A DNA stretch of 64,000 nt from Mizuhopecten yessoensis (taxonomy: Eukaryota). Under the pieces are notes generated by a model. It was not told where the DNA came from. It saw only the letters and a program-made list of their open reading frames with translations, and searched no databases. This document shows positions 506-56,912 of this stretch, piece by piece. The stretch spans positions 1,512,732 to 1,576,731 of the forward strand of contig NW_018405113.1 in the NCBI RefSeq assembly GCF_002113885.1, given 5' to 3'. The position numbers were made by a program, and so were the translations under genes. Position 1 is the stretch's first letter, and the number at the start of each line of letters is the position of its first letter.

Positions 506-765
506 TTAAATTGAAATAGTCCGTTGGTGATATTTGAAACAGTATCAGATTGTTTTTCATAATGATGGAGGTACAATGTATCAGATTGATGTTTCGATAA
601 GTTGATGAAGCTGTTGAACTGTTTTCTACTGCACATGTATTGTGACCCAGTTATATTAAGATTTGTTAGCTTAATGAAGAGTTCTGCAAACGTTTCGTGA
701 AGGGTCAATACTTTGTATTAAAATACTTGATAATTTACTCTAGATAGTCCTCGGTTAAATTGTAG

Positions 766-1455
766 AAGGATGCAGAGGTCGACAAGCAATGATCTGCAAG
801 TATGTGGTAGACATTCAACGTTACCGAGGGGTAGCTAACCTGCTTCTAACCCATATCTGTCACGGGTATGTCCGTTCCGAGCCAGTGTGCGCATGGTTTC
901 AGAGCGTTCAAGCTAACAACAGATATATGATTGACCAGCTGTATAACTTCTTCCGGGGACTTACGGCCATCTTAGAGGGCAGTAATGAAATAGACACATT
1001 GACGAAGGAACAACTTTTTCAGTATCTCGGATCACAATCATCGACAAAGTTGCCATTTTTCTTGTATATTGATATATTAATGCAGCCCCTTGAATACAAA
1101 CTGTCCACTATTAACGCTTTTGTTAAGGAAGGTCATTCCGAACGAATGTCATTCATGGAACGAGTAGATATTCAGGAAATTAGAGTGTTGTCTATTGAAA
1201 ATTTAATCCAGGTTTTGTCGGAGTTGGATACAAATTTTAACATTTCATTCAATGAGATACACGAAGAGAGAAATATGGCGTAGTTTTCAGTTTTCAGCCA
1301 ACGTATCATTGTCCGATATTGATTATAACCCACCCCACTCTGAATACGCCGAAACGTATCCTGGTTATCTACATATCCGAGAAGTACCCACGGACATAGG
1401 AGATAATGATGCGAAAGATAAACGATGCCCCGCGCGGAATGACACCAAGTGGCTA
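766..1455 (+). pseudogene. Truncated pseudogene copy of the gene C terminal exon (psi-C)
   Basis: Reverse complement of ~37720-38424. ORF 789-1283 closely matches gene C (YMID..GLTAILE..EIHEERNMA). There is a premature TAG at 1281-1283 (TTG in C), then a frameshift. Homology ends at ~1455, where the sequence jumps to the equivalent of ~33240. Confidence 0.9.
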
Positions 1456-2323
1456 CCATATAGAGACAGGGGGTCGTAATCAAACAAATTTCGAGGAAGT
1501 GAGCAATCGAAAACGAAACATAACAAAACTATAGTTATCAATGTACGTATAAACACACTCATGCCCATCGGCTGTTAGAATGACTCTATAGCATTGTACT
1601 CGGGCACAATACACATGAAATGACTGTTGAACTATTATAAACTACTTTGTCCGTACACATCCAAAAATATCGTGTGGCAGATTAGTGCAGTCTTTTTTAA
1701 TAAACCGGTGGTGATTATTTGAATGATATAAGGACGTTTTTTTATCAGATTAATGAACTGTTTTCTAAATCGCCTGTATTATGACCCAGTTTTATCAAGA
1801 TAAATAATTCTGTAAAAGGTTCGTGCATCAAATTATATTGATAACAAAACAATTAAATCTAACTTTAAACAAAACTGTAATAATTTGTATTATAGTCTGT
1901 CATGATTGACACGGATTCTCAGTTTGATGACGTCATTGTTAGGAGTTAATCTTGATTTACATAGCGGATGGATACCGCAAGGTATATTTCTTTGTAAATT
2001 TGAAAATACTTCAGGTTTTATTTTTGTTGCTCGCTTTAATATCTCAATGTACTTAAAGGCAAGATAGCGTGGTATACACTTACTTTTTTTTTTAACCGAC
2101 TTGCTCAATTTGTATAAAATCTATTTTATTCTTATACGTTGTAGTAGGTTTTTCAGCATGTATGACTAATGTACACATACCTACCGAACAGAGGAACTGA
2201 CGATATCATATAAGTCAAGGAGAATGGTAATTAAATATTTCCACCGATATGATGACCTTGTTACACAAAAGCCAAAAATAAAACGAATACACATGAGTTA
2301 TTTTTGAATCCAATTAACATGAT

Positions 2324-2458
2324 TTCCGAGAAATCATGGCGGCCTGTCTGCAGATCGGTTTTTCAAGAAATGCTGACGTATAAAAGGCGATCTCCATAGG
2401 TTTATGTTTATATTTCTCGTCTAGGGTGTTTAAACACCAGTTCAGAACTGAAGCCAAG
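2324..2458 (+). promoter_or_regulatory. Putative promoter and non-coding exon 1 of gene A
   Basis: TATAAAA at 2379-2385, donor AAG|GTAAGT at 2458/2459, TTCCGAGAA at 2324-2332. All are conserved in the gene B copy (32339-32474, minus). Confidence 0.6.
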
Positions 2459-2689
2459 GTAAGTAGGGCTTTATTTCATATAAAATGTTTCATGATTGTG
2501 AAACTGTTATATAACAAAATAGATTGATGACATCTAAAATGTTTAGATAACTTTGACAGTTATCAATTTTTACTAATATATAAGAATAGACAAAGTAACT
2601 GTTAGCATGTGCTCTTCTCAAAATTTTACAAAAAATAAATTTTATAATTAACTTAAAAAGAGGCATTTTGGCTGGTTTTGTTTCTTTTG

Positions 2690-5030
2690 GAACAGTTTTT
2701 TATTTGCATTTACAAGATACAATACACATTACAAGGACACAACTTACACTCACACTACCTTACTTCTTGGAATGAAGATTCTTTATATAAATGAACAAGT
2801 GGTTCTCTGTTATGTAATACAAGATAATATAGTATTCAGCTGCACCTCACCATCTCAAAATCGAACGATTCACTCGCAGAAAGGTTTTCATGCCTGAACA
2901 TTTAGAATAGTTAGACAACAAAATGAGCCTTAACTTTTAGTTTAGAATTATTTTAAGTCGTCCGAGATAAAAAAATAAATAAATTGAGGTCTGACTAACA
3001 TTTATGCGGGAATTTAGACAACGTTAGCATGAACTGATTAAGTATACAGGTTACTAGATTTCTATCACTAAAATTGATAGTAGTCTCCATCTTTGATGGA
3101 ATGCCACCAGTTTACCATTGCATGTAGATATATATTTTTCAGTATTATAGTAATTCCTAATATCTTTCTTAACACTTTCTATACATGACATGTCACCTTT
3201 CACACGCTGTTTGTAAATGTAATGCTTAACGATCAACACAATTAGATTTTGGCCTTGATATTGTTTACCATGTTTACCAAAAATAATCTCTTGTTTCGTA
3301 AAGTTAATAAACCACCTGTTTTGGTTTAAACAATATTTTATTTACAAGTATGCTGTACATAATATATAATTTTACATAATGTAATATTAGGGATCTGGCA
3401 ACAAGAGTAGGCTCTTATATTAAGCCATCTCCCAACAATGAGAAGATTGCAGTATAACACAGGTTAATTAACATCAATAATTATATAAATTCAACTGATT
3501 TAGCTAATTTAACAATCAAGGTCGACCATTTGAAATAATAGGTAATAAGATTGGCAGTAGAGAATAATGTTAATATTTACTTTAGAGTATAGGGACTAGA
3601 GATGTAGGGTAATAGTTGGAAAGGGGGGGGGAGGGGGGAGAGCGGGGATTTGATGATGATGAAGTGAAATGGAATTGAAACCTATGCAGTCACCCAAATC
3701 TACCTGTTCCAATGATATACCTATGCACCTGATTAAAAATTTCTGTATCATCATTGCAAGACAAGTTTGGATCACCATGTAATAACTTTCCGATGTCCAC
3801 GATTACCCCTAACTTAGCTATGGTTTCGGCCCGAATTGTGTTCCTACAGTCAATGAGAAAGTGAGAAGTGGTTTTAATGCAACCATGGTTTCTGAAACAT
3901 GATTAATATATAAATGATGGGTTAATGAGCTGCATTCGAGTCGAAGCCTTGTATGAAGTACCTGGACACGCCGTTTGCCGAAGTAGTAGTAATCGGGTAT
4001 CTTAGACGTATTCCTACTAAGGTAACGGAGAAAAGAAGATTTAATTGGGTTGTTCCTAACATGTTCAGGTATCAAATTTTTATTCACGGATGGCTGAAGG
4101 AAAGAAAGAAGACATATAAATATTGGTTCTGCTATATGGAGGGTGCATATTCAAATTTGATCTTAAATTGTAACCTTTAGTGGAGCCGGTGGATGGGGGT
4201 AGGTGATTTCGTAAGTAAGAGGGAGCAAGTCCATTGACTATATTGTACATAGCTTGCATCCTATGTTTATATTTCCTGTAGGACAATGATTCCCATTGGG
4301 TTTCATTAACAAGGGATTGTGAAGATGCGGACTTGGTTGCACCTGTCACAGTACGAGCTGCTTCAGTTTGTATCTTTTCTAGATCAAGAATCTGCTGTTG
4401 GTTGCAGTCCCCCAGACAATATCCGCATATTCTAGGATAGGCCTAATATAAGAAAAGAACATAGTTTCTAAAGATTTCCGATCTAGTTGGAATTTCAATG
4501 ATCTCAATATATCAATTCTTTTCCATGCTTTCCTAAGTATGTTGTCAATATGTAAATTCCAAGAGCAGCTCTCTTCAATGGTTAACCCAAGATGTATGTG
4601 ACTACTGACTTGTACTATTTGTGTATTATTCATTATTAATGGAGGATGATCGACTTTGACACGTTTCCTAGATAGAATCATACTTTTAGTTTTATTTTAA
4701 CCACATGTTTTCAAAAATATCTAATTTTCAAGGAGGTTCCATAATCTTTCAACAAGTTCACATTCACAAAAACATATGTAAAATAGTTTCCTCTGTATGA
4801 TTACAGAAAGTACAGAGGGAATTGTCCAAAGCATTGATTTTTGTTAATAAACTATTAGTTGCCAGTATCCTATGTGTAATTCTGTAACATCTTTTGTTCT
4901 GTAAAGAACAACATTTTGTAACTTTTTCAAGTCTATAACGTCTAAGTTGAGTATGTTTGACCATTTGTCAATATCTAGTTGTATAGCTAATGTTTGAAAT
5001 AAAAATTTCATACATGTCTCTACAACCTCT
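2690..5030 (-). mobile_element. Tx1/L1-like LINE 3' fragment (zf-RVT-like region), interrupted by a nested CR1-like insertion
   Basis: ORF 4764-4964 YRITHRILATNSLL..CTFCNHTEETILHMF and ORF 3054-3239 KHYIYK..EKYI....FHQRW are typical Tx1/L1 ORF2 C-terminal motifs. Absent from the gene B arm. Confidence 0.75.
3341..4699 (-). mobile_element. 5'-truncated CR1/L2-clade LINE with 7-bp TSD (tatttta 3334-3340 / 4693-4699)
   Basis: Frameshifted RT C-terminus: HLGLTI..SWNLHID..IRPILEYADIVW, SFFPSAIRE, HTRLRLECSSL. Removing the insert restores the host Tx1 reading frame. Confidence 0.85.
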
Positions 5031-5085
5031 AATATATATATGCTTTCAGCTGTGGACTTGAACGTATGCATCGTGCCTTGCGCCT

Positions 5086-8000
5086 ATGAAGATGAAGTTT
5101 GTTTACTCATTGCTGCTGCTTATGCTAGTTGCAGTGTGGGCTCATCCTGGTAAGTGTTAGTAGGAGGTATGTCAGGGTCGTAACGATTAAGAGTTAGCAC
5201 TGTTATGGTCCTTGTATCATCTATGGACAAGTCGTCTACAGTGCCAACATAATAAACGATATCAAACGAGTTAATGTCACGGTAATCAATTACCCTTCTC
5301 ACTAAAGGAATATACCAGGCTTCCCTTTAATTGTGATGATTTGAAATAGTTGGGTCGCTACTACAGAACTCTTCCTTTAAATCACAAAAGTTGTCCTGTT
5401 GACGAATAAGTTAAGTAGTCATGGTCTTCTACCAGATCAGTTTCAATCTACACTTCAATATTTACGATCGTAGTCATGATTTGATATTCTGTTTTGAAAT
5501 ATTACTGTCAATCATACATAAAAAGACGTATTCATTATGTCTCGGATATTTCATGACCGATATATACATACTCCCCAACATTATACTGGTAATTTATCAT
5601 GATGAGAGCATGGCATTTTGCCCTCCCGGAGCACTTTGCTTCGCCTCCATTTTATTCTGGGACTTCATGATGACATTCCGGGGCCGTTTCTTTTCATGTC
5701 TCGTTCGTTCCTATTTTGACCTTTTATATCGAGTTTGCATTCCATTCTTGTTTCTTTGTGTTTCAATCGTTAATCATATTAATTAAAAGTAGCACTGTAA
5801 ATACTTGCACTTTACATCAGAAAGCGAGCAAACTTGAGAATAAGGAACTTTTTCATAAACTTCTTAATTGAATAAGTTGTTTGGATAAGTGTTTCATACA
5901 AATACTTTGATCAACAAGTTTTCCTCTTTTATTGTTATAGATTACAGCGAGTCTGATGATGATGACGGTAGAAGTGTCACAACGGTTCAGAAAGCAAGAT
6001 TAATGACAGGAGACATATCACGAAGTAAGCATGCTTCTTTTGCTTTGAATATTTGCTATTGAATAAACCATAGCTATAAACAGTTGGTAATAAGGAAATT
6101 AAGAAAGGTGAGTAACAGTGGGGTATAAAAAGAAGATATCCTTAAAAAATCAGAAATGTGAGTAAAAGTGAAATTTACTTTCTGTTAGGTTTAATCAATA
6201 ACAATAATAGTAAGATCTCTGGAAAGTATCTCTCAGCGGAATTCTGGATAAGTAAGTAGGCAAAAATGGAGTCTAATAGAAATAGGTTTGGTCAGGGCTA
6301 CTCAAAGTGAGTAAATAGTGTGAAGTCTAAGAATAGTAATTTGTGATGAAGACATTTTTATTTTTAGAAGAGTTAATATTTTATAACCTTTAAAACATGT
6401 ACATGGGAATACAGTTTTATGACTATTAGACAAATTTTCACGCTTTTACAATCCCATTTACATTGGCAAAAATATGTAACCGACTTCCCAGTATCGTTAA
6501 CAGTGAGCAATATTGATCTTCAGTGGTGCTAGAATGGCAAGCAAGGATAGCCTAAGCCTATAACATTAAAAACTTTCCGTCACTTGTTGCCGTAAAGTGT
6601 CAACCAGGTGTTGGCCAAACCGTGTTCTATATAGGTTAACCATTGAAACATATTTGTATTATCTTTCTTATTGAATACACCTTTTCAAAAGAAATTCTGC
6701 ATGCCCTTCCCTTTATACACTTGTACGTTAGTTATATTTCTTTATAGTTAGCCTATTGCTGAGGACAATGATAAGTAGTACTAAAGTACATTCCTGCGTT
6801 TATATGGTTTATCATAGGATCGGCCTGTTGACAAGGACACATTATATATGCACGGGTATTCCGGTTTATTGTAAATTTATGTCTTATCAAATACAGGAAC
6901 ATTATCTAATGCTTAAAAATGATAAAAACGTTCTTCTTTTTTTAGATAACAGCAATGAGAATCGAAAGGTCACAAAAGTTCGAAGAAAGAGAGGAATTTT
7001 CGGTGTGGCGTTCCGCGCAACAGCAACAGCAGCGAAAACATGTAAGCGACAGTTGTAATACCATTTTATAATCAAAATAGATACATACTGAAACGTCTCA
7101 TATTGATATTTTGAACATCAAATAGTCTAAAGGTGTTTGTACTGAACATTGATTTGTCATGGTAAGAATAATCTAAAAAAGAAGTATTCGCGGCAAATGT
7201 TTACAATGTATCTATATATTACTGAAAAATTTGACCTATCTAAGGGATTGATAATTTTCTATAATGACAATATTCAGGATTGAGTATATGATTGGTTAAC
7301 TATCTCATGGATTGTTCATCCCACGGATCACATATAACTTGGGTTAACTGATCTAATAGAATGAATTTTCTGATGGTATAACAAATTGATTAATAGCTTT
7401 ATGAATACACATTTTGAATTTTTGATTTCCTCAGGTATTGATCAAATCTTAAAATGCAAAAAAATAGATCATAATAGAACGTTTTATTCGTTATCACCAT
7501 CGTCTGTTATTTATTACCAGGATTACTCTTTGAAAGGAACTTTCATGCGTCCACAAAATTATTTTGTTATCATTATGAAAAATAATGCCTCATTAAAATA
7601 CACACTAAAATATCTGCGGCATTTTTATTAGGTTTTTATTATGATTATTTCCAAAGTCTTATTTCTGGTGTGTATTTGACCAGATAGGTTTATTCGTGTG
7701 TATCTGTCTATAAAATAATTAATCTTACTCTGAAATGAACAGTAAGCACATAGGTTAATAACTTTAAATGTACACAATCGAATGAAACCAACATATATTA
7801 TTAGATATCATCATGACAATTATCTGAAAATACCGTTTATCGTTTTATATCAGTTTGACTATGATATTTTAGGGGTAATTTCACCAATATTAAACATCTT
7901 TGATAATGAAAATAATGATTTTACTTCTACTTACAATTGTGAAATATTGCTGAACGTCAGCGGAAATCATATTGAAAAATGATATGTAAAGACACAAGAA

Positions 8001-11000
8001 GGAAATGTAGCTGACGAAAATATAACACTCTTATCAGAAATATTTGTACTTTATTCAGTTTGCTTTATTTGTAATAGCTATTTTATGAACTCTTTTAAAC
8101 AGTCATTAAAGCACTCATAAAGAACGTGCCGAGAGCTGTGTCTTCATTTTCGAAGATCGTCGGGAAGGTTGGGAAAGCAATGGAGTATGTAGAGGTGGGA
8201 ATCACAGTTGTTCAAGCTATATCAGGTATGTCAATAGCAGAGTGAACATGTAGTATAAGGTTAAAATGTATACTGTTTACCATTGATTCTAGTTTTATTA
8301 TTTCACAATGTTGCATCTAAAGGTATTTCACGATTAATTATTTTCATTACATCAGAAGTAACATACAATATTCCCTGATCGTGCCGAAATGACTAGCATG
8401 ATCTTATGCAATACTCTAAATTATGTTCTTAAGTGTCATGGTATTCTGGATAAATATACTTATACCTCTGGCGCTGTGTTCACATACACTAAAGTTACGT
8501 GACGTTATAATGCCCTGTTTTCAATTGTTCACAGTCTCTCATATTGATTGTGAGCTAAATCTCTCCTATATGAGAGTGAAAAATAATGATGATATAATAA
8601 AAGAAACTAAATAAATTTTTCTCCCCAATAACATTAGGGCATTGATTTGAATACGTTATAGTTATAGCCCATTCACTTCTTCATACATTCTTTACTTTCG
8701 GTCCTCTTAAATACAAAATGTATGTAAATATGTTGTTAATATTTGGTAATAATTAAAACACTTAAGGATGTACTCTTCTGAGAAGAAAACAATTTTACGC
8801 AATTTTTGAAAAATGAGTTAGTGGCATAGTAGAAAAAAACAAAACGAATTGCATGTCCGTGTTGATAAACAACTCCTGTTAACGGGGGAGGGGGCAAGAT
8901 CTACACCCTGCCTGTAACCTATTCGGTAAAGTGTATACGCTCTCTATCGATAGGCGAAACGTCCCGGGTCGAGTGCCATAAATAACATACAATTTCATCA
9001 CATCGTATACAAATCGCTCACTCAGTCATAGCTTGACAAAAGTAACCAGTCGGTTTTGAAACGTTGCGACACGTTTAATACATACCAAGTAAAACTTTGA
9101 TATAAAATGTCCAAAGGGATCTAATTGAAAATATAAGAAACACACATTTTCAAAATGGAGGCCGAATTGGTCATTTGTTTTTAATTCATAGTTTTTTTTC
9201 CAGATGGGTGGTTGATCATAACTTGTTATATATTACAAAAACACGTTTCACAAGAACAAAACGAGACTTGAACGTGATTTAAAACTCAGAAGAGTACATC
9301 CTTAAAACTAGTAATACTTACAGTATTGGTGACCTGCATAATCTACTGAATTCGATAGGAGACATTATGACGGTTGCCCACATATGGTACAGGAAACTCT
9401 TGCGTTTTTGCTTTCTGCAAATTTTGTTTCAGCACTTTACTCTGTTTATTTTCCGCTCTTTGAGAATTTTGTTTCTCGATATGGCATGATGATAAATCAT
9501 TTCTAAAAGAAAACCAATCAAAATATTTAAAAAAATAAATGCAACAATGTTCAATGTATACAATTGCAATAAGACCAGAATTCGAACCATTGACTTCAGA
9601 TCATTATAAATTTACTATCGCTCTTACCACCTGAGCTACCTATAGCTAGTCAAAGGAAACACATTAGCTACATGTACGTCGTGCTACTGTTATATCCAAA
9701 ATGAAATTAATGAAAGATTCCTATAAGTAAAACTATATAGAAATTCTTTAGTATTTTGCCTGCAGTAGTACAGGTATTCTTAAAATCAAAGATTCATACA
9801 TTCAGGCGGAATAAACGTTTTATTATTTTGCCTCTTAATTCACAGAATGTCCAGCGGTGAATATTTGCCCATTGAAAGAAGAGCTAAAGACAATCCAGGA
9901 CCACATATATGAAGCATTGAAGACACTGAACCAGACTCACACTAGACTTAGGAAGTGCACTGTTAAGGCGAACCGAGTGTATCATTCAACACAGTTGATA
10001 CTTTCACACATCAAGCATATTACTCAATCGCTTGTCTATATCACCGAAATTTCAGAACTGCGTTATTTGGAAAGCATGGATTTTGTATGCGCTAAAGAAA
10101 ATGATACAATGATCAAGGAATGCTTAGAGGAAAAAATCAATGACATTGAGTTTGTTTACTCACGAATGGCAAAACGTTTAAATGACATTAAACATAACAA
10201 TATGATGCAAGCAGTAATTTCATTTGTTGTCCAAAAGACGATATCAGTGATAATAGGAAATATTGGTAATTTATCCAAGAAAAAGTATGATTTTCTTGTT
10301 TATAAATTTGGCAAGCCGAAAAGCAAATTCAAGAAATTTAAAATGATTACCAAAGCTATCATTTCCGGTCAAAAAGGGAGAGGCAAAAAGGCATTGACTT
10401 CGGTACAAAATGCTGTGTTATACCCCGTTAAAACACTAAAAAACAAGTTAGGAAGAGTATCCCATAAAATGAGATCGCTAAAACGTAGAGTAGTTAACAA
10501 ATTTGTTCATCCGAGACAGGGATACAAACGTCTTTGGAATAACATAAACCCAAGAAAGTTTTCTGTTAGTTCGGTAATCGGAGGATTCGCAAAAGGCTCA
10601 TTTTCTAGTATTATATCTGCAGTCTCGATTTATTTGGAGCAAAAGAAATATGTAGAGCTAGAGGATGATTTGAGAGTGTTTATTCATGACTATCAGAATA
10701 ATTTAAAACAATTAAATGAAACTATTGCTGAGGGAATCGAATCAGAAACAAACTGTACACAATACTTTGATTATTCTATCGGCCTGTTTATAAACGAATC
10801 AAGAACTGTTGTTGAAACACTTGAGTTGTTTGACCACATGATACCCAACACAACGGCATTAGAAGAAATAGATCTCACACAATTTGAAATCAAAACAGCA
10901 TTATACCGAAATGTTTCTGCTATCTTACTTGGTAACGTTGACAAGGGTAACATACATCTAAAACAAAATGAACTATTACATATCTTAGAAAACGACTTTT

Positions 11001-12397
11001 TTAACATGACTGAAATGAAGTCTTGGGTTCATACAGAAAATACTTTATTTGACGTTGTACAGGAAGGAATCCACGACAGCAGTGTCAGCATATTGCGCAT
11101 GTGCTATAAGCTCAAGTATGTAGGTTTACACACCACTGGAAGAGGAGTTAACTGGCCAATACAGGACGTTCTCTGTCATCTGGCTCTATTCCATCCCAGC
11201 CACAAGGAGTTTGATTACTACAATATGGAAAACATCAGTGACTACTGCAGACGAACGCCAGACAGTTTTCCTCTGAACACTGTTCTGTTAGACAGAAAAA
11301 ATACTTTGGTGCAAGAAACAATACGACGTAATGTTGAAAGCAGCGAGGACGAGGATACGGCAAAACTATCTGACGAAATATCCCGAGATCTCGGATTTGA
11401 CGAATACATGAAACTCCTGGGTAAATTTCCAGACGAGAAAGAGGTGTTGTGTAACATTGCCGAGATGTTTCCCCAAAGGTTCAAGTACGCTTTCTATGAC
11501 TTGGCAGACTTCAGACCAAGATCGACTTGTAGTCTTTTAACAACCGAAAAATTCGAACAACTCCAACTCGATGCAATAGAGACGAGGAATGAAATGAAAA
11601 GATATCAAATACTTCTGAGTCCAGATATTTTCAATACATATCTTAATAAAACAATACGCAAAGGCTTAAAGGATAACGTTCCCATCAGTTCCATCTTCCA
11701 AGATATCCGTCGGTCCTTAACTGTAGCCGATGTTAGGAGAAATGACAACTGGCCATTTAAGGAGATCCTCTGTGCTCTTGGATCTGTAGCCCCTTTGGAA
11801 ATGTACGTGTATGATCATTACCCTGTTGACGTCATAAGAAACCAGTGCCAGTCAGGTACGCTACTAACCTCTCAGCTTCAGGACATACTTTTAAAAAGGA
11901 AAGAGAATTTACTTGAACTCAATATAAGACGTTATGTAGACTTTGAGGAAGAAGAAAACCCAGAAGCAATGGTTAAAGAATTTTCTAATCTGCTGATGTC
12001 AGATTTGATTATGGAGTCCCTGGATATCAGCCCTACGGAACACGAGATGATATGCATGGTGGCCGATCTGTATCCTGGCAAGAAGGAGTACGGGATGTAC
12101 AGGCTTAACCAGTTCAGACCGATGGAGGTTTGTGAACAGATAACTGAACAGGGATTTCAAATTCTGACAGATGAAAGGGAGAGACGCAAATGGGAGGCAA
12201 TGCTTTCCAAGTATTGTTCCGATTCTGATGAACCTTGCTTTCCAATGACCCGCAAAACATCAGAAGATGGACCCCCCGCACAGCACTATTTTTCTCAGTC
12301 AGGGACATGGTCCTGCCATGCGACAAGGAATGTGTTCATCGTCATGGCCTTGTTCGCTTTGCAGTGTATAATGGAATGGATAAGCGTACATTTCTGA
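5086..12397 (+). CDS. Gene A: uncharacterised ~972-aa secreted/membrane-anchored precursor (signal peptide, acidic pro-piece, furin site, amphipathic peptide, coiled coils, 2 Cys-repeat domains, hydrophobic tail)
   Basis: Coding exons 5086-5149, 5941-6024, 6946-7041, 8103-8225, 9846-12397, all GT-AG, all phase 1, in frame (2919 nt). N-terminus MKMKFVYSLLLLMLVAVWAHP-DYSESDDDDG...KVRRKR/GIFGVAFRATATAAKTFIKALIKNVPRAVSSFSKIVGKVGKAM...ECPAVNICPLKEE. Exon positions are conserved in paralogue B. Confidence 0.88.
8762..9305. mobile_element. MITE with TTAA ends (Kolobok/piggyBac-type) in gene A intron
   Basis: ttaa-ggatgtactcttctgag ... ctcagaagagtacatcc-ttaa. A decayed copy at ~26768-27343 shows it predates the duplication. 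Confidence 0.75.
9570..9650 (-). mobile_element. tRNA-derived SINE head remnant
   Basis: Minus strand gtagctcaggtggtaagagc (A box) ... ggttcgaattc (B box). Mirror copy at ~26352-26425. Confidence 0.5.
9846..12397 (+). CDS. Large terminal coding exon of gene A (ORF-track 846 aa)
   Basis: Uninterrupted ORF. The acceptor cacag at 9841-9845 precedes the ORF-track GTG start at 9857. Confidence 0.93.
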
Positions 12398-13254
12398 GGT
12401 TTTTGTGATTGGTTTTGCATTAGCTAACTGCGTCTTTCAAACATGGCCTGCATACAATGGGTGTAATACAACTTGAGCATGTTGAAGTGTAAATATAGTG
12501 TTGTATTCTGTTTATTTCTACCTAAATATCTGGGTTATTAAATATGCCTGGAAATATTTGGGATAAATATTAATAAAGAGTGTGAGCAAACCAATAATGT
12601 TTTATTGGTTTTTAATGGCAGGGAGAATACAGTGTGTAAAGCATTTTTACGTCATCATTGGTAGAATTACTATAAATATCTTGGAGATTGTTATCAATGA
12701 AATATATCAACATTTGTTAATCAATTAATTAACATTGGATTAAATGGAGGGACATTGTTACGATTTGTCCATTTAATGAATAACACAGATATTTTTATAC
12801 GATAGAGAGGGTGTCTCCGAGGATAAGGATAATGATGCTTCTCATACCAACCCTTTCCTCGGAACTCTCACTAGATTTAACAAGGTTTAATCTTACATTT
12901 TTTCATCATTGCCTCTTTGTTTAAATAACAATAAATATGTACGTATCTTGTATCTAATATGTTTGCTGATTTTTGTATTAATTATTCAACAGACTTTATT
13001 AACACTTATAAATTAGGGCTATTCAATACTGTCAGTGCCTGGAAATATTTGGGATAATATTAATAAAGTGTGTGAGCAAACCAATGATGTTTTATTGGTT
13101 TTTAATGGCAGGGAGAATACAGTGTTTAAAGCATTTTTACGTCATCATTGGTAGAATTACTATATGTATTTATCCACTGACAAGATATCATTTGGAACAG
13201 CAACTTTATGAGATACATCATTTTTTAATAAGATATGTGATTGAGTTCTAAGTT

Positions 13255-13410
13255 CAAAGTCATTAATCAGTCAATCATTTATAAGTCAATCTTTCTCAGT
13301 GAATCATTTATCAGTCAATCATTTATTAGTCAATCTTTATCAGGGAATCATATATCAGTCAAACATTAAATTACCAACATTAATTATCGAACATTAATCA
13401 ATCAATCATT
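13255..13410. repeat. Degenerate ~15-bp minisatellite (cagtcaatcatttat)
   Basis: Visible periodicity. Mirror copy with more units at ~22750-22925. Confidence 0.7.
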
Positions 13411-15299
13411 TAACAAAGTGAAGATAATGAGGCATGACAAGCTGACTTTGCATAAAAAGAACCAATCATTTTTTTTTCAAAGAGATCTTATATTGAGACA
13501 TCCCCTGTCCAAAGTATATACTTGCTGAGTAAGAATTGAAGACTGATGACGCACAAACATTGTATGATTGACCTTCTGTTAACAAGGGTAAAGAAAGAAC
13601 ATTTTTCTTGCAGTGATTGATGGTTCTTTACTTGTAGTCAACTTGAAGATAATATGAAAGTAAAGAAAGTAAATGTATAGGGTAACAGTTGTCATTGTTT
13701 AATTTTTTTTAAAACATTTGTTACCCAGTGTGTAATGTTTGTTTTTATCTATGTATATATTTGTAGTAGATATCAATAATTGAACTCATTTCCTATGAAA
13801 GTTCGGGGAAAGAACAACCTTGATAACATGATTATATCACATTACTGCATGTATGTATTTTATTTACTGTACTTATCATCATATTAAAATTTCATATTTT
13901 TTTCAAATGTTGTCCATATTATTCCTAAACAGCTTTATAAGCCAACCAAAATATTACTCTTTTGTCAGCTCAAAGTGACAGGTGAGCTTAGTACAAATAT
14001 TAGTCAACATGAACACTGACAGATCCTCCCCCTACCACACCTACCTCCACCCCTTGTACCGTTTTAGTGCCAGTTCCCTTGACATTGACCTTCAAATATT
14101 TTAAACCCGGTTGCACATCGACGTATCACAGTTCATCACCATGTCAAAATTCAAAAGGATTAGTCTTTTAGAATTTCAGATAAATTATCCGAAAACAAAA
14201 GTGTGGCTGGCCTCCATGTGGGGCCCCTTAAATAAAAAAATGATTGGGAAGCAGGCAATGTCTATGTAAGCCGTCTCCGAGTAACACATAGTGCTATCAA
14301 ATTGCTTTGACCACCTCTCAATGTCATTTGGATCAAATGGTTTAAATTGATGTTGAAAGTGAGTCAAGATTAGTTATCTAAATTTCTTAGAAATTATCAA
14401 TTTAAATACATTTCAATAAATTTGATGATAGAAATTTGATACAACTGAAACCACATAAGGGAGACCTACCTCAAAAATGACACAACTGACAGGGATAGAA
14501 TTTAAAATAAAACGTTGCACAGATCCCACTAAATTGTTTAATTAAACATAGATAGATATCACACACACTTATACATAATTACGTACTTAAGGCTGTATGC
14601 TATCTTAGTGTGACAGTCATATACTTTACAAAAGAGTTCCGGACAGGACACATTTAAAAGACAAACAATAATGTAGGCAATGATGATTTTTCTAATTACA
14701 AAATTAAAGGAATACAATTCTAATACAAATCAGAGGTAGAATCTAGAAGGTAGCATATGTCCTTAATTCGTACACAAACGACTAATTACAAGTATAAGAT
14801 GTAATATAACATGTATCCTTAACTCTTACACATATCACAGGTATATTGTGTTCGATAGCATTATATCTTAACTCTAACAGAAAATGAGGACTTCTTTGTG
14901 GAAACCAAAGTGTCAAAAGGGAATGTTTGAGTTTTGGTGAACCCGACGCCGGCTGTTGGTCTTTTTACAATTTATTGGTAGTTTTGCTTCTGACATCCGT
15001 CCGCCATTACGCGCATGTGCACTTTCCCCACCTTACTTTAAGGGCTTAAAGGGGCAGATCCAGACATTTTCAGAGGGATGTCACCATTCCAGATTTCCGG
15101 TTTATTTTGCGACGAATGCGATCTGAACGATATTTAATGTTGCGCAAAATTAAGTTATATACCGGTCTCTGCCCTAACCTTTTCAAGGTTCTATATTTTA
15201 ATCTTTCTTGATTTGTTTTCTTCTTTTGTTTATTAGTTAAATGCCCGAGTGGAATGAATAATTAATATATATATATTAATTTTGATAATTTATTTATCT

Positions 15300-19569: not shown

Positions 19570-20560
19570 TGGACATGTAATCATTAACATGTAGATATTT
19601 GGTAACAAGGTCATTGACATGTAAGTGATGAGTAACAGAATCATTTACATGTATCAGGGTCATTGACATGTATGGGTAATAGGGTCATTGACATGCAAGT
19701 AATGGATAATAGAGTCATGCAATTGCATGTTATGGGTAACGGGGTTATTGACATGTAAGTTATGGGTAACAGGGTTATTGACATGTAAGTTAGGGGTAAT
19801 AGGGTCATAGACATGCATGTTATAGGTTACAGGGTTATTGACATGTATATTATGAGTTAGAGTCATTGACATTTAAGTTATTTGTAACAAGGTCAATGAA
19901 ATGTTAGCTTTTGGTGTAAGGGTCATTAAAATGTAAGTTGTAGGTAACTGGGTCATTCACATGTAAGTTTTGGTAACAGGGTTATAAACATTTAAATAGT
20001 TGGTAACATGTCATTCACATGTATGTTGTGGATAACTGGGTCATTCACACGTAAGCAATTGGTAATATGATCATTGACATGTAAGTTTTTGGGAAATATG
20101 AACATGGCCATGTAAGTTTTTGGGTAACAGGGTTATGGACCTGTAAGTGAAAGGTAACAGGTTTATGGACATCTAAGTTATGGGTAACAAGGTTATTGAC
20201 ATGCAAGTTATTAGAAACAGGGTCATTGCCATTGTGAGTTATGGGTAATGCGTCATTTACATGTAAGTTAAGGATAACAGGGATATTGACATGTAAGTTA
20301 TCATTAATATGGCCATTACCATGTAAGTTATGAATAACAAGGTTATTGACATGTAAGCGATTAATAACAAGGTTATGGACATATAAGTTATGTGTAACAG
20401 GGTTATTGACAGGTAAGTTACGGGTAACAGGGTTATTGACATGTAAGTTACGGGTAACAGTCATTGCCATATAAGTTATTGGCAACTGAGTCATTGACAT
20501 ATAAGTTATGGTTAATAGTGTGATTGATATGAACCTTAAGGGAAACAGGATGACATGACA
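19570..20560. repeat. 30-bp minisatellite (gggtaacagggttattgacatgtaagttat), ~33 degenerate units
   Basis: Direct periodicity. Produces spurious 10-aa-period ORFs (NNPVTHNLHV). Confidence 0.92.
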
Positions 20561-23500
20561 TGAAGTTATTCCATTGTAAAATATGATCAATAATGTTGTT
20601 TGATAGGTTGTGTAATCACCTTTTTTTTGTTGTGACAAGGAACGTAACAGTGCAGTCATGTGCAAATCAAATGAGAAGAGTTTTAACGTATGTATTAAAT
20701 GTCTGACATATGTCGTTGCTGTAGAGATGTAGCCAGTGTGTTCAAGCTAGGCAGTAGCTATGAAGTGGAACCCCCACCAGTCAATAAAGAAGACCAACTC
20801 CTGTTTCATAAATACGTCATGTGTGGAAAGAAAGGCGCAACTAACCCTTCAAAGGACCAAATCAGAAATTTACGATGAATTCTTCACCAAGAAAACTTTC
20901 GTAATGACACTTCTACTGCTTTCAATGAGTAATTGGATTATCTCTATTTCAAGTAGAAGGTTATCCTTTCCCTCCCATGGAAAAAAAATAGGAAAGGAAG
21001 CATTTGTATCAGACACATTTTTTCAAAGTGTAACAGAAACCTAAAATCAGTGCAGGAGGAAACAATACAAAGTGGTGGATCCAGTTCGGCAATGTGGGAG
21101 TATCTTTTAGATTATAAAAAATGATTTTGAGGTATCTTAACCTCATGCATAAAGTCGTTCTTTGTTAGAAATTCTGTATTTACATGTCAGTATTCATTAA
21201 CCCACCTACCCACCCCGTTTAGAGATCCTAGGCCTTCCAGATTATAGAAAAAATGTGGATTGAGCTCAGTATCCACGCTTGACCATGGGTAAAAATCATT
21301 CCACAAAGAAGTCCACATGTTCTGTTTTACACCTGTTAGGGTTCAGATTTAATGCTATCGAACACAATATACCTGTGATATGTGTAAGAGTAAAGGACAT
21401 ATGCTACCTTCTAGATTCTACCTCTGATTTGTATTAGAATTGTATTCCTTTATTTTTGTAATTGGCCTACATTATTGTTTGTCTTTTAAATGTGTCCTGA
21501 CCGGAACTCTTTTGTAAAGTGTATGACTGTCACAGTAAGATAGCATACAGCCTTAAGTACGTAAGTATGTATAAGTGTATGTGATATTTATCTATGTTTA
21601 ATTTTAAACAATTTAGTTGGATCTGCGCAACGTTTTTTTCTTTAAATTCTCTATTCCTGTCAGCTGTGTCACTTTTGAGGTAGGTCTCCCTTATGTGGTT
21701 TCAGTTGTATCAAATTGATTGAAATGTATTTAAATTGATAATTTCTAAGAAATTTAGATAAATAATCTTGACTCACTTTCAACGTCAATTTTAAACATTT
21801 GATCCAAATGACATTGAGAGGTGGTCAAAGTAATTTGATAGCACTATGTGTTACTTGGAGACGGCTTACATAGACATTGCCTGCTTCCCAATCATTTTCT
21901 TATATAAGGGGCCCACATGGAGGCCAGCCACACTTTTGTTTCCGGATAATTTATCTGAAAATCTAAAAGACTAATCCTTTTGATTTTTGACATGGTGATG
22001 AACTGTGATATGTCGATGTGCAACCGGGTTTTAAATATTTGAAGGTCAATGTCAAGGGAACTGGCACTAAAACAGTCCAAGGGTGGGTGTGGGGGGAGTA
22101 GGTGTGGTTGGGGAGGATCTGTCAGTGTTCATGTTGACTAATATTCGTATTCAGCCCACTTGGCACTTTGACAAAAGAGTAATATTTAGTTGGCTTATAA
22201 AGCTGTATAGGAATAATATTGACAACATTGAAAAAATATAAAATTTTAATATGATGATAAGTACAGTAAATAAAATACATACATGCAGTAATGTGATATA
22301 ATCATGTTACCAAGATTGTTCTTTCCCCGAACTTTCATAGGAAATGAGTTCAATTATTTAAAGCTACTACAAATATCTACATAGATAAAAGAAAAAGAAA
22401 AAAAAAGTGTGTATACAATAACACACTGGGAAACATATGTTTTTAAACAGTTTAAACATTGACAACTGTTACCCTATATATTAATTTTCTTTGCTTTCAT
22501 ATTATCTTCAAGTTGACTACAAGTAAAGAACCATCAATCACTGCAAGAAAAATGTTCTTTCTTTACCCTTGTTAACAGAAGGTCATTCATACAATGTTTG
22601 TGCGTCATCCGTCTTCAATTCTTACTCGGCTATTATATACTTTTGACAGGGGATGTCTCAATATAAGATCTATTTAAACAAAGGTTTAGTTGGTTCTTTT
22701 TATGCAAAGTCAGCTTGTCATTCCTCATTAGCTTCACTTTGTTAAATGATAAGATTAATGTTCGATAATTAATGTTCGGTTACTTAATGATTGACTGATA
22801 AATGATTCCTTGATAAAAATTGACTGATAAATGATTGACTGATAAATGATTGACTGATTAATGATTGACTGATTAATGATTCACTGAGAAAGATTGACTT
22901 ATAAATGATTGACTGATTAATGACTTTGAACTTAGAACTCAATCACATGTCTTATTAAAAAGTTAAATATCTCATAAAGTTGCTGTTCCAAATGATATCT
23001 TGTCAGTGGATAAATACATATAGTAATTCTACCATTGATGATGTAAAAATGCTTTAAACACTGTATTCTCCCTGCCATTAAAAACCAATAAAACATCATT
23101 GGTTTGCTCACACTTTATTAATATTTATCCCAAATATTTCTAGGCACTGACAATATTGTATAGCCCTAATTTATAAGTGTTAATAAAGTCTGTTGAATAA
23201 TTAATACAAAAATCAGCAAACATATTAGATACAAGATACGTACATATTTATTGTTATTTAAACAAAGAAGCAATGATAAAAAAATGTAAGATTATACCGT
23301 GTTAAATCTAGTGAGAGTTCCGAGGAAAGGGTTGGAATGAGAAGCATCATTATCCTTATCCTCGTCAGTGCTCATAATAACACCCTAGACACCCTCTCTA
23401 TCGTCACAAGGCTATCGTATAACAATATCCGTGTTATTCATTACATGGAAAGATCGTAACAATGTCCCTCCATTTAATCCAATGTTAATTAATTGATTAA

Positions 23501-23690
23501 CAAATGTTAATATCTTTAATTGATAACAATCTCCAAGATATTTAGGTAGAAATAAACAGAATAAAACACTATATTTACACTTCAACATGCTCAAGTTGTA
23601 TTACACCCATGATAAGCAGGCCATGTTTGAAAAACGCAGTTAGCTAATGCAAAACTATTCACAAAAACCTCAGAAATGTACGTTTATCCA

Positions 23691-26152
23691 TTACATTATA
23701 CACTGCAAAGCGAACAAGGCCATGACGATGAACACATTCCTTGTCGCATGACAGGACCATGTCCCTGACTGAGAGCAAGGTTCATCAGAATCGGAGCAGT
23801 ACTTGGAAAGCATTGCCTCCCATTTGCGTCTCTCCCTTTCATCTGTCAGAACTTGAAATCCCTGTTCAGTTATCTGTTCACAAACCTCCATCGGTCTGAA
23901 CTGGTTAAGCCTGTACATCCCGAACTCCTCCTTGCCAGGATAAAGATCGGCCACCATGCATATCATCTCGTGTTCCGTAGGGCTGATATCCAGGGACTCC
24001 ATAATCGAATCTGACATCAGCAGATCAGCAAATTCTTTAACCATTGCTTCTGGGTTTTCTTCTTCCTCAAAGCCTATATAACGTCTTATATTGAGTTCAA
24101 GTAAATTCTCTTTCCTTTTTAAAAGTATGTCCTGAAGCTGAGAGGTTAGTAGCGTACCTGACTGGCACTGGTTTCTTATGACGTCAACAGGGTAATGATC
24201 ATACACGTACATTTCCAAAGGGGCTACAGATCCAAGAACACAGAGGATCTCCTTAAATGGCCAGTTGTCATTTCTCTTAACATCGGCTGCAGTTAAGGAC
24301 CGTCGGATATCTTGGAAGATGGAACTGATGGGAACGTTCTCCTTTAAGCCTTTGCGTATTGTTTTATTAAGATATGTATTGAAAAAATCTGGACAAGGAT
24401 GTATTTGATATCTTTTCATTTCATTCCTCGTCTCTATTGCATCGAGTTGGAGTTGTTCGAATTTTTCGGTTGTTAAAAGACTACAAGTCGATCTTGGTCT
24501 GAAGTCTGCCAAGTCATAGAAAGCGTACTTGAACCTTTGGGGAAACATCTCGGCAATGTTACACAACACCTCTTTCTCGTCTGGAAATTTACCCAGGGGT
24601 TGCATGTATTCATCAAATCCGAGAGCTCGGGATATTTCGTCAGATAGTTTCGCCGAATCCTCGTCCTCGCTGCTTTCAACATTACGTCGTATTGTTTCTT
24701 GCACCAAAGTATTTTGTCTGTGTAACAGAACAGTGTTCAGAGGAAAACTGTCTGGCGTTCGTCTGCAGTAGTCTCTGATGTTTTCCATATTGTAGTAATC
24801 AAATTCCTTGTGGCTGGGATGGAAGAGAGCCAGATGACAGAGAACGTCCTGTATTGGCCAGTTAACTCCTCTGCCAGTGGTGTGTAAACCTACATCCTTG
24901 AGCTTATAACACATGCGTAATATGTTGACACTGCTGTCGTTGATTCCTTCCTGTACAACGTCAAATAAAGCATTTTCTGTATGAACCCAAGACTCCATTT
25001 CAGTCATGTTAAAAAAGTCGTTTTCTAAGATATGTAATAGTTCATTTTGTTTTAGATGTATGTTACCCTTGTCAACGTTACCAAGTAAGATAGCAGATAC
25101 ATTGCGGTATAATGCTGTTTTGATTTCAAATTGTGTGAGATCTATTTCTTGAGATCTCATGTGGTCAAACAACTCAAGTGTTTCAACAACAGTTCTTGTT
25201 ACGTTTATAAACAGGCCGATAGAATAATCTAAGTATTGTGTACAGTTTGTTTCTGATTCGTTTCCCTCAGCAATTATTTCATTTAATTGTTTTAAATCAT
25301 TCTGATACTTATGAATGAACTCTCTCAATTTATCCTCAAGCTTTACATATTGCTTTTGCTGCAAATAAATTGAGACTGCAGATGCAATACCAGACAGTGA
25401 GCCCTTTGCGAATCCTCCGATTACCGAACTAACAGAAAACTTTCTTGGGTTTATGTTATTCCAAAGACGTTTGATTCCCTGTCTCGGATGAACAAATTTG
25501 TTTACTACTCTATGTTTTAGCGATCTCATTTTATGGGATACTCTTCCTAACTTGTGTTTTAGTGTTTTTACGGGGGATACCACAGCATTTTGTGCCGAAG
25601 TGAATGCCTCTTTTGCTCTCCCTTTTTGACCGGAAAGGATAGCGTTGGTTATCATTTTAAATTTCTTGAAATAACCTTTCGGCTTGCCATATTTTGAAAC
25701 AAGAAAATCATACTTTTTCTTGGATAAATTACCAATATTTCCTATTATCACTGATATCGTCTTTGGGACAACAAATGAAATTGCTGCATCCATCATATTG
25801 TTATGTTTAATGTCATTCAAACGTTTTTCCATTCGTGAGTAAACAAACTCAATGTCATTGATTTTTTCCTCTAAGCAGTCCTTGATCATTGTATCATTTT
25901 CTTTAGCGCAGACAAAATCCATGCTTTCCAAATAACGCAGTTCTGCAATATTGGTGATATAGACAAGCGATTGAGTAATATGCTTGATGTGTGAAAGTAT
26001 CGAATTTGTTGACTGATACACTCGGTTCGCCTTAGCAGTGCACTTCCTAAGTCTAGTGTGAGTCTGGCTCAGTGTCTTCAATGCTTCATATATGTGGTCC
26101 TGGATTGTCTTTAGCTCTTCTTTCAATGGGCAAATATTCACGGCTGGACATT
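23691..26152 (-). CDS. Large terminal coding exon of gene B (ORF-track 816 aa)
   Basis: Intact ORF. It is 30 aa shorter than in A because of a 5-aa indel, an 18-aa deletion and a stop 7 codons earlier. Confidence 0.93.
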
Positions 26153-29100
26153 CTGTGAATTAAGAGGCAAACTAATAAAAAAAATCGCCTGAATATATGA
26201 ATCTTTGGTTTTAAGAATACCTGTACCGCTGCAGGCAAAATACCAAAAATATTCTGTATGGTTTTTCGTACTTATAGTAATCTTTCATTAATATCATTTT
26301 GGATATAACAGTAGCACGACGTAGCTAATGTGTTTCCTTTGACTAGCTATATGTAGCTCATGGTCAGGTGGTAAGAGCGATAGTACATGTATAATGATCT
26401 GAAGTCAACGGTTCGAATTCTGGTCTTTTTGCAATTATACACATTGAACATTGTTGCATATAAAAAAAAAAAACATTTTTAATTGTTTTCTTTTAAGAAA
26501 TGATTTATCATCATGCCATATCGAGAAACAAGTTTCCAATGTAAATTTACAGTTGTTAGCAGCGGCACAGCGATTCTTAAGATAAAGTCCATTTGTATCA
26601 CAATATTAACAAATAGCGGAAAGTAAACAGAGCAAGGTGCTGAAACAAAATTTGCAGAAAACAAAAACGCTAGAGTTTCCTAAACCATATGAGGGCAACC
26701 GTCATAATGTCTCCTACCGAATTCAGTAGACTATGCAGGTCACCAATACTGTAAGTATTCTTAGTTTTGAGGATGTACTCTTCTGAGTTTTAAATCACGT
26801 TCAAGTCTCGTTTTGATCTTGTGAAACGTGATTTTTGGAATATATAACAAGTTATGATCAATTTTAAAAGCACACACCCATCGGGAAAAAAAACCCTAGA
26901 AATTATAAAAAAAATGACCAATTCGGCCTCCATTTTGAAAATGTGTGTTTCTTACATTTTCAATTAGATCACTTTAGAATTTTTTATATCAAAGGTTTAC
27001 TTGATACACAAACAATGTATGTATTAAACGTGTCGCAACATTTCAAGACCGACTGGTTCCTTCTGTCAAGCTATGCCAGAGTGAGCGATTTGTATACGAT
27101 TTGACGAAATTGTACGTTATTTATGGCACTAGACCCGGGACGTTTCGCCTATCGGTAGAGAGCGTATACACTTTACCGAATAGGTTACAGGCAGGGTGTA
27201 GATCTAGCCCCCTCCCCCGTTAACAGGAGTTGTTTATCAACACGGTCATGCAATTCGTTTTGTCTTTTCTACTATGCCACTAACTCATTTTTCAAAACTT
27301 GTGCAAAGAAAAATATTAAAATGGGATTTTTTTTACATCCTTAAGTGTTTTAATTATTACCAAATATCAACAACATATTTACATATTTGAGACCACCGAA
27401 AGTAAAGAATGCATGAAGAAGTGAATGGGCTATACCTATAATATATTCAACGAACTGCCGTAAGGTTATTGGGAAGCAAAATTTATATAGTTTCTTTTAT
27501 TATATCATCATTATTTTTCTCTCTGATATAGGAGATATTTAGCTCACAATCAATATGAGAGACAGTGAACAATTGAAAACAGGGCATTATAACGTCACGT
27601 AACTTTAGTGTTTGTGAACACAACGCCAGAGGTATAAGTATATTTATCCAGAAAACCATGGCCCACTTGTATAAAACTGTTAAGGAAAATCTCAAGCAAT
27701 GTATTGTCTATGGAAAATCTTAGACTTGAGGAAATCTCAAGAGTTGAGATGTTTTATACAAGTGGGCCCATGACACTTAAGAATATAATTTAGAGTAGTG
27801 CATAAGATCATGCTAGTCATTACGCACGGTCAGGGAATATTGTATGTCACTTCTGAGGTAATGAAAATAATTCATCGTGAAATTCCTTTAGATACAACAT
27901 TGTGAAATAATCAAACTGGAATCGATGGTAAACAGTATAAATTTTAACCTAATACCAAATTTTCACTCTGCTCTTGACATACCTGATAAAGCTTGAACAA
28001 CTACGATTCCCACCTCTACATACTCCGTTGCTTCCCCAACGTGTCCGACGATCTTCGAAAATGAAGACACAGCTCTCGGCACGTTCTTTATGAGTGCTTT
28101 AATGATTGTTTAAAAGAGTTCATAAAATAGCTATTAGAAATAAAGCAAACTGAATAAAGTACGAATATTTCTGATAAGAGTGTTATATTTTCGTCAGCTA
28201 CATTTCCTCCTTGTGTCTTTACATATTACTTTTCAATATGATTTCCGCCGACGTTCAGCAATACTTCACAATTGTAAGTAGAAGTAAAATCATTGTTTTC
28301 ATTATCAAATATGTTTAATATTGGTGAAATTACCCCTAAAATATCATAGCCAAACTGATATAAAACGATAAACGGTATTTTCAGATAATTGTCATCATGA
28401 TATCTAATAATATATGTTGGTTTCATTCGATTGTGTACATTTAAAGTTATTAACCTATGTGCTTACTGTTCATTTCAGAGTAAGATTAATTATTTTGTAG
28501 ACAGATACACATGAGTACACCTATCTGGTCAAATACACACCAGAAATAAGACTTTGAAAATAATCATAATAAAAACCTAATAAAAATGCCGCAGATATTT
28601 AATTGTGTATTTTAATGAGGCATTATTTTTCATAATGATAACAAAATAATTTTGTGGACGCATGAAAGTTCCTTTCAAAGATTAATCCTGGAAATAAATA
28701 ACAGACGATGGTGATAACGAATAAAACGTTCTATTATGATTTTTTTTTTTTTACATTTTAAGAGATGATCAATACCTGGGGAAATCAAAAATTCAAAATG
28801 TGTATTCATAAAGCTATTAATAAATTAAATTGTTGAACCATCAGAAAATTCAATCTATTAGATCAGTTAACCCAAGTTATATGTGATCCGTGGGATGAAC
28901 AATCCATGTGATAGTCAACCAATCATATACTCAATCCTGAATATTGTCATTATAGAAAATGATCAATCCCTTAGATAGGTCAAATTTTTCATGAATATAT
29001 AGATACATTGTAAACATTTGCCGCGAATACTTCTTTTTTAGATTATTCTTACCATGACAAATCAATGTTCAGTACAAACACCTTTAGACTATTTGATGTT

Positions 29101-31123: not shown

Positions 31124-31374
31124 AGGCGCAAGGCAGAATGCATACGTTCAAGTTCACAGCTGAAAGCATATAGATATTAGAGCATGCTTTACCGTATCAT
31201 ATAATCTATTTTAAATACATATTTTAAGCTATTTTTGTTTCCTAAAATATTCTATGGGTAATCCTTCAAGGTTTGCTTTAAATGTGTAACATATACTAAT
31301 TACATTTCCATTTATACCATACGGACTCATTATATTCAGAACAAATGTGGTCCAATATAAATTACAAGTGAATC

Positions 31375-31857: not shown

Positions 31858-32338
31858 TAATGTGTTTTTAAATAACAAGTTTATCCAATAGAAACTGAAC
31901 AATACATAGAGGTGTCCTTTTGTAAATACACCAGAGTCAATACAAAACGATAAAAAAGAATTTCTGTTTTCTTTTTTTGTTTTGTTTTTGTTTTTGTTTT
32001 GGTTATGGGTTTGTTTAGTTTTTTGGTAAAACATGAGCAAGTTATCATAGACCTTTTTCATTACTCACGTTTTTGTAATGTAATTTCACTACACATTCAT
32101 TATTTTTTAATTTAATTTAATTCTTTAATTGTTTAACAGGGATTACCAACAGCCAAAATGCCTCTTTTTAAGTTTATTTAAAAAAACAAATTGTGAAATT
32201 TTGATAACAGCACTTATATATTAGTAAACATTGATAACTGTCAAAGTTATCTAAACATTTCAGATGTCATCAATCTATTTTGTTATATAACAGTTTCACA
32301 ATCATGAAACATTTTATATGAAATAAAGCCCTACTTAC

Positions 32339-56690: not shown

Positions 56691-56719
56691 ATAAATGCAG
56701 TACCATAGTGTTTTGTAAA

Positions 56720-56903: not shown

Positions 56904-56912
56904 AATGCCGGC

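Follow-up and report, generated by a model that had tools for sequence, protein, structure and literature searches.

What kind of protein results when a furin-type cleavage site stands directly before an amphipathic helix on a large scaffold that ends in an anchor-like tail? This question is raised by gene A (LOC110447737) of the scallop Mizuhopecten yessoensis, which lies at positions 5086-12397 of a stretch of 64,000 nucleotides from contig NW_018405113.1 (positions 1,512,732 to 1,576,731, forward strand). The whole stretch is called the window, and positions given here count from its first letter. An initial annotation had presented the gene as an undescribed furin-activated precursor that exposes a GIFG/GLFG N-terminus on a membrane-anchored scaffold. 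Its gene model, cleavage site, amphipathic segment and tail have been upheld; its GIFG motif, acidic pro-piece and fusogen geometry have not. The product of gene A is likely a secreted, glycosylphosphatidylinositol (GPI)-anchored, furin-cut precursor of an all-helical family. It would be a protease-armed membrane-active precursor, a known kind, on an undescribed scaffold, and the lead offered by its likeness to influenza hemagglutinin (HA) fails. Two findings go beyond the initial annotation: most relatives of A are of a soluble type, and the family core has a conserved basic and hydrophobic module of its own.

Gene structure and transcription

Gene A has five exons. Exon 1 (5086-5149, +) carries the start codon and the signal peptide (residues 1-21) and is placed by junctions and RefSeq identity. 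Exon 2 (5941-6024, +) is an in-frame cassette for residues 22-49 of the pro-piece, with an aspartate-rich run. Exon 3 (6946-7041, +) encodes the end of the pro-piece, the furin-type RRKR, G66 and the first amphipathic helix, and exon 4 (8103-8225, +), for residues 82-122, encodes a strongly amphipathic cationic second helix followed by a hydrophobic one. The large exon 5 (9846-12397, +) defines the family and holds residues 124-972 and the stop codon. Every exon is bounded by GT-AG signals and joined in phase 1; together the five give a protein of 972 amino acids (aa) without an internal stop. This protein is letter-identical to P0001, the M. yessoensis RefSeq entry XP_021349304.1 ("uncharacterized protein"). 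The splicing of four short exons onto the long open reading frame (ORF), as first proposed, is thus borne out by splice signals, RefSeq identity and the presence of all junctions in transcript contigs. The size first given for that ORF, 846 aa, is corrected to 849 whole residues in the last exon.

Junctions were mapped in four runs, using transcript contigs for X1, X2 and X14 and raw reads for X24. The junctions of introns 2 and 4 are present in the contigs of X1, X2 and X14. Intron 1 is joined in X1 and X14, with loose ends in X2; intron 3 (to 8103) is seen spliced in X2 and X14, and also in X1, there with five differing letters at the end of exon 3. Intron cover is low in the contigs of all three runs. 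Contigs of A and its copy B are partly pooled (93% likeness), and no one contig covers the whole gene. The raw reads of X24, about 19% of which were read, gave zero reads over the exons of A. Sampled words of exon 5 were at least half present in 18 of the 24 runs listed, 14 of which are RNA (13 guessed, one on record) from seven studies; five rows of the run listing that share a study held almost no exon-5 words. Expression of gene A is real, and it is probably restricted to some samples. The presence of the junctions in transcripts rules out a pseudogene or mis-splicing, and the four introns together with the absence of a viral match rule out an endogenous viral envelope gene. Intron 4 also contains a repeat element (8930-9310), probably an interspersed repeat that is transcribed, where contig depth is very high and loose ends are numerous.

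The N-terminal region

The N-terminal features of A can be followed in the inverted duplicate B, in a mini-gene E upstream of the window, in distant C-type paralogs, and in an Argopecten irradians ortholog, P0006. The ortholog is 44-45% identical to A and keeps the signal peptide, RKKR-G, the cationic amphipathic segment, the basic insert, four repeats and the GPI-like tail. The 21-aa signal peptide of the initial annotation corresponds to the 21 codons of exon 1, which do encode a signal; the cut, as we read it, falls probably after Ala19. The pro-piece had been taken as acidic and inhibitory. Counted from the sequence, residues 20-65 hold 8 D/E against 11 K/R, a net charge of +3; the ortholog's pro-piece has +7, and RefSeq isoform X2 of copy B omits the pro-piece exon (exon 2).

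The furin-type RRKR occupies residues 62-65 (6981-6992, +), and the predicted new N-terminus, G66, starts at 6993 (+). Residues 66-108 have a net charge of +8 and form two predicted cationic amphipathic helices. Their helical hydrophobic moment over 18 residues, 0.71, is the maximum of the protein (shuffle mean 0.39, p=0.003), and amphipathicity exceeds that of 2000 shuffles in A (p=0.003), B (p=0.002) and Argopecten (p=0.0005). A hydrophobic helix follows the amphipathic pair and reaches residue 122. The amphipathic segment is 46% identical between species, and the remaining ~850 residues are as conserved (31-51%). No second RxK/RR site occurs from residue 66 to residue 899 of A.

The cleavage site and the charged helix, both claimed at the outset, are retained across species, and the GIFG motif is not. 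The site reads RRKR-G in A and B and RKKR-G in Argopecten, followed by GIFG in A, GIVS in Argopecten, GLGS in P0015 and GFIR in E. RxKR-G with a cationic amphipathic stretch is present in four of the six distinct family genes whose N-terminus is available (A, B, P0006 and the Cys-capped P0015) and also in E; it is missing in the C-types P0019 and P0020. Among the sequences that have the site, the conserved traits are a glycine after the furin-type site and cationic amphipathic character, rather than GIFG. By composition the exact string RxKR-G[IL]FG is expected about 0.04 times per 10 million residues, a rough figure for a motif picked post hoc.

Residues 66-123 differ between A and B by 13 non-synonymous and 2 synonymous changes, a rate of change above that of the repeats (p=2e-4) and of introns 2-3 (p=8e-5). 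Compared with synonymous sites the excess is not significant (p=0.36), intron 4 has also diverged by 9-14%, and selection on these residues is not established.

The core, the repeats and the tail

Exon 5 begins with a helical rod core (9848-10840, +; residues 124-454) that contains a Cys pair, a long helix (130-192), a helix at 209-236 and a second long helix (391-454). The AlphaFold model of A reaches a predicted local distance difference test (pLDDT) score of 80-90 on parts of the long core helices, and a relative, P0014, was modelled at pLDDT 81. Within the core lies a module of three parts: a moderately hydrophobic helix H1 (10199-10273, +; residues 241-265; hydropathy KD19 1.57), a very basic insert (10274-10558, +; residues 266-360; net +25 over 84 scored residues) and a Gly/Ala/Ser-rich hydrophobic helix H2 (10559-10642, +; residues 361-388; KD19 1.39). 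Family medians of KD19 are 1.2 for H1 and 1.28 for H2, both under transmembrane level. The charge density of the insert, between its two hydrophobic helices, is at least 0.15 in 31 of 35 aligned sequences, many of which are close paralogs.

The expected repeat domains were recovered as four repeats of ~95 aa (10994-12163, +; residues 506-895), each of which contains two Cys and the pattern D-x-x-C / Y-D-x-Y-x-L. Matches to the repeat hidden Markov model (HMM) fall at 506-610, 644-705, 720-812 and 853-895. The anchor-like tail (12299-12397, +), which the ortholog retains, consists of small residues, a short spacer and a hydrophobic run (KD13 2.7), a GPI-like layout by inspection and hydropathy. 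B, E and the Argopecten ortholog end directly after the hydrophobic run, and A is seven residues longer. Endings of this kind favour a GPI signal over a transmembrane helix. A also has 12 N-glycosylation motifs. The predicted architecture is a long three-helix rod followed by repeats and an anchor. From aligned ranges rather than viewed coordinates, we infer that the basic insert and H1/H2 lie at one end of the rod, together with the new N-terminus.

A family in scallops and pearl oyster

An exhaustive HMMER search found 14 representatives and a profile search 24 proteins, with named members from Mizuhopecten, Argopecten, Ylistrum and Pinctada (scallops and pearl oyster). A profile of 29 sequences from outside the named scallop genes recovers A (E 1e-35), with a collinear alignment across the core; the core alone scores 21.5 bits and the reversed sequence -3. 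By this profile, homology in the family is whole-length and carried mainly by the repeats, of which members have 1-4. Among 50 proteins of at least 500 aa, many of them near-copies, 37 have a six-Cys cap without an anchor, 11 have a hydrophobic tail and two are unclear. Most relatives are single-exon gene calls that begin at the large exon and so do not include an N-terminus.

In the C-types, the basic insert and H2 were lost together with the furin exons, which amounts to one correlated loss. P0015 departs from this pairing: it has the furin site, yet its insert is near-neutral. C-type paralogs are retained in three scallop species. A tree of 24 of the 56 family proteins places A-types and C-types on separate long branches; the tree neither shows nor excludes that the GPI-like tail arose once.

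Database, fold and literature searches

As far as the searches go, the family is undescribed, as the initial annotation had held for the protein, and is without a known-family match or a significant fold match. Four window ORFs, 15 proteins and 37 alignment members gave no Pfam match over cut-off, and no defensin or MACPF match was found among the Pfam-scanned proteins. Sequence search of the PDB gave a best E of 0.5 for exon 5 and no matches for residues 62-123; with the family profile the best E was 0.039, to coiled-coil constructs. Fold searches used whole-protein models of 972 and 693 aa. Foldseek returned nothing at E<=1e-3 from BFVD or PDB, and the VIA matches listed were generic helical bundles only: IncA (10.6), Rx-CC (10.2), sporozoite traversal protein (10.1), I-BAR (9.8) and MLKL (7.9). 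No ClyA, Hbl, Nhe, YaxAB or Cry6 chain was among the matches listed by VIA or Foldseek, a result that does not thereby exclude this family. The ESM Atlas gave no usable match for P0001 and only sub-0.9 leads for P0014. Metagenome scans for family loci with upstream exons found none. Literature searches by accession and topic, covering titles and abstract openings with supplementary expression tables outside their scope, returned nothing on the family.

The local gene cluster

The window contains an inverted segmental duplication (727-14776 versus 21381-38463, 88-96% identity) that spans D and A on one side and B and C on the other. Gene B (LOC110447738; 23691-31123, -; 939 aa) is the inverted duplicate of A with ~91% protein identity. 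Its exon-4 acceptor has changed from AG to AA (28096-28107, -), and an AG 9 nt downstream is used instead, with three residues lost in frame from the amphipathic segment. The B-type junction is seen in contigs of X2 and X14, where it is deeper than the A-type, contig depth being a poor measure of expression. The possibility that A and B are mere alleles was rejected: they lie inverted on the same scaffold with 6% synonymous divergence, and both types of exon-4 junction occur in X2 and X14. A mis-assembly of divergent haplotypes is formally still conceivable.

Gene C (LOC110447685; 36287-42973, -; 770 aa), with two repeats and a hydrophobic tail, is a distant member of A's family that has no furin/amphipathic exons and has lost the basic insert and H2. 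Locus D (727-1448, +) is a truncated, stop-interrupted copy of C's large exon. Mini-gene E lies ~20 kb upstream (L019:5060-1190, -; G000:C1786 ~1493560-1489690). Its exons 1-3 are homologous to those of A and are followed by one short exon with the same tail, giving 131 aa without the core: a signal peptide, a pro-piece, RRKR, a short basic then acidic peptide, and a GPI-like tail. All three E junctions were seen in run X5 and none in X1, X14 or X24 (four runs examined). E probably arose from an A-type gene through internal deletion. Apart from A, B, C and E, searches of the scallop's own genome turned up just a C-like piece, on contig C74092, and no further armed copy; these counts are lower bounds. 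The piece (C74092:1-1438 in G000; L006) scores the same as C and is probably an unmerged haplotype or a duplicate.

Several other elements were noted. An inverted repeat of ~300 bp within an intron of C (39127-39422) is 85% self-complementary and resembles a miniature inverted-repeat transposable element. Tandem arrays occur at 19671-20569 (30 bp unit), 33901-34257 (21), 34708-35989 (31), 54248-54889 (156) and 56715-57249 (46); those with units of 30 and 31 bp explain the long ORFs at 20045-20746 and 34627-35094. An ORF fragment at 57660-57950 (-) resembles the C-terminal end of a reverse transcriptase of the long interspersed nuclear element type. At 10-40 kb downstream of the window, L016 holds a low-complexity ORF rich in Lys, Glu and Asp, and L017 and L018 hold long ORFs that we take to resemble type II membrane glycosyltransferase-like proteins.

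Comparison with known systems

Perforin-2/MPEG1 is a membrane-tethered effector that acts against a facing microbial membrane through a beta-barrel MACPF domain and has a transmembrane anchor. A resembles it in its predicted tethering and gave no MACPF match. The general layout of a GPI-anchored protein is recognizable in A: a predicted signal peptide, a C-terminal small-residue site, a spacer, a hydrophobic run and no cytosolic tail. Big defensins are a bivalve comparison. In the parts of PMC7203481 drawn on here, their precursors are described as having a signal peptide, a prodomain whose terminal basic site is presumed to be cleaved by a furin-like peptidase, and after it an N-terminal region that is exposed and either hydrophobic or amphipathic. 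A shares the signal peptide, prodomain and basic processing site. As depicted in those parts, however, big defensins are small soluble peptides whose C-terminal part is a six-Cys beta-defensin domain, whereas A is an all-helical protein of 972 aa in which a rod is followed by four repeats and a GPI-like tail; its predicted mature chain is ~900 aa, and it has no sequence match to big defensins. Antimicrobial precursors with an acidic pro-piece differ from A and its ortholog in the sign of the pro-piece charge. ClyA-like proteins are characterized, in the sections of PMC6162564 used, as all-helical elongated bundles with hydrophobic segments between long helices. The models of A share this build with buried hydrophobic segments, of moderate hydrophobicity only, but they differ from the ClyA type as so described in the three-helix rod and basic insert, with furin site, repeats and anchor as extra parts. 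A is placed in none of the big-defensin, ClyA-type or perforin-2 families, since the assignment either fails or cannot be made.

The comparison with influenza HA2 begins from a polybasic site right before an N-terminal Gly, a long helix after it and, in M. yessoensis, the string hydrophobic-Phe-Gly. The excerpted text of PMC4908596 names positions G1, G4, G8, G12, G13, W14, G16 and G20 of the HA fusion peptide as important; G4, G8, G16 and G20 make up its Gly zipper. A matches these at G1 and G4 only, and the ortholog at G1 and G13 only. The first 23 residues of A after the cut include 4 K/R, in contrast to the HA fusion peptide, which the same text presents as apolar. Further differences are the repeats between rod and anchor, the four spliceosomal introns and the loss of the motif in the ortholog. 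With GIVS in the ortholog and few HA positions matched, the likeness of A to HA is, by sequence comparison, a lineage-limited coincidence.

Function and alternative explanations

Our tentative choice, held with less than even confidence, is that A is a furin-matured, GPI-tethered host-defence protein that binds and damages anionic (microbial) membranes. In this mechanism, furin-type cleavage would free G66, basic surfaces would capture anionic lipid, and the amphipathic and hydrophobic helices would then enter the bilayer and disturb or perforate it. Attack would occur in trans from the cell surface or following shedding, with the repeats serving as spacer or recognition modules, and the Cys-capped relatives might act likewise in solution. 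This reading is favoured by the presence of RxKR-G and the amphipathic stretch in four of six genes and in E, by amphipathicity that beats shuffling at only 46% identity, by the basic insert between hydrophobic helices in most aligned members, and by the joint loss of the furin/amphipathic exons and the basic/H2 module in C-types. A role in defence is consistent with local duplication, decay and change in repeat number, and we count in its favour the fast change of residues 66-123 between A and B and the signal, pro-piece and furin-like site logic shared with big defensins, as far as the sections of PMC7203481 used describe it. More speculatively, and with considerable doubt, A may represent the tethered branch of an unrecognized family of animal proteins, alpha-helical, furin-armed and membrane-attacking, with a fold of its own (a three-helix rod, a basic insert, two hidden hydrophobic helices and variable disulfide repeats). 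Molluscs would use soluble Cys-capped forms and GPI-anchored spike forms, with the disarmed C and the core-less E as partners or decoys.

The close and main rival to the defence reading, unlikely but a serious possibility, is a glycoprotein at the cell surface or in mucus with a structural, adhesive or recognition role. Its pro-piece would simply be trimmed off by furin, the amphipathic helices would pack on the rod, and the basic insert would bind polyanions such as sulfated glycans. The GPI-like tail, the N-glycosylation motifs and the tandem disulfide repeats suit such a protein, as do the position of helix 107-120 inside four-helix-bundle matches, the persistence of C-types in three scallop species without furin exons or basic module, and the lack of a pore-former among the fold matches listed. 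What it leaves unexplained is that N-terminal cationic amphipathicity is kept despite sequence drift, and that E, which has lost the whole core, still has RRKR-G and a short start that is basic and amphipathic; in addition, 37 of the 50 long family proteins have no anchor. A lipid-binding carrier or membrane shaper, apolipoprotein-like or BAR-like, would bind lipid surfaces without lysis. This is quite unlikely: every fold score is in the range that the tools call generic, and the BAR/I-BAR matches have rmsd (root-mean-square deviation) values of 5-10 and identities of 5-10%. BAR proteins are cytosolic and have no signal peptide, whereas A, B and the Argopecten protein carry a predicted N-terminal one and would enter the secretory pathway.

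Very unlikely, in our estimate, is a released antimicrobial peptide, in which residues ~66-123 would be cut free and the rest would be a carrier. The charge and hydrophobic moment of segment 66-108 are typical of helical antimicrobial peptides, small exons are dedicated to this segment, and E is an example of a short peptide carried on the same chassis. Such release is hard to reconcile with the lack of a further RxK/RR site anywhere from residue 66 to residue 899, with a pro-piece that is not acidic and with a remainder as conserved as the peptide. Most improbable is a cell-cell or gamete fusogen of the class I viral type, in which furin would free a fusion peptide before a heptad helix in an anchored ectodomain. 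Its parts (furin-type site, N-terminal Gly, long helix 130-192 and anchor) stand in the correct order, the motif string is uncommon by composition, and transcripts are missing from some samples. Class I fusion proteins have a second heptad helix beside the bilayer-spanning anchor. In A, helix 391-454 is separated from the GPI-like tail by ~490 residues, mostly repeats, and the fusogen geometry of the initial annotation is not supported.

Implications

The cluster provides natural controls for the defence reading of gene A: the armed A and B, the disarmed C and the core-less E. Even if the proteins prove merely structural, the family and its two-Cys repeat are without a Pfam model or a solved structure. 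The mollusc pore-formers that turned up in the literature search, as seen in titles and abstract openings, are aerolysin- and actinoporin-like. If the defence reading is true, a separate family of protease-armed helical proteins, some soluble and some anchored, would be a new arm of invertebrate immunity in farmed shellfish and would bring a new helical membrane-attack fold.

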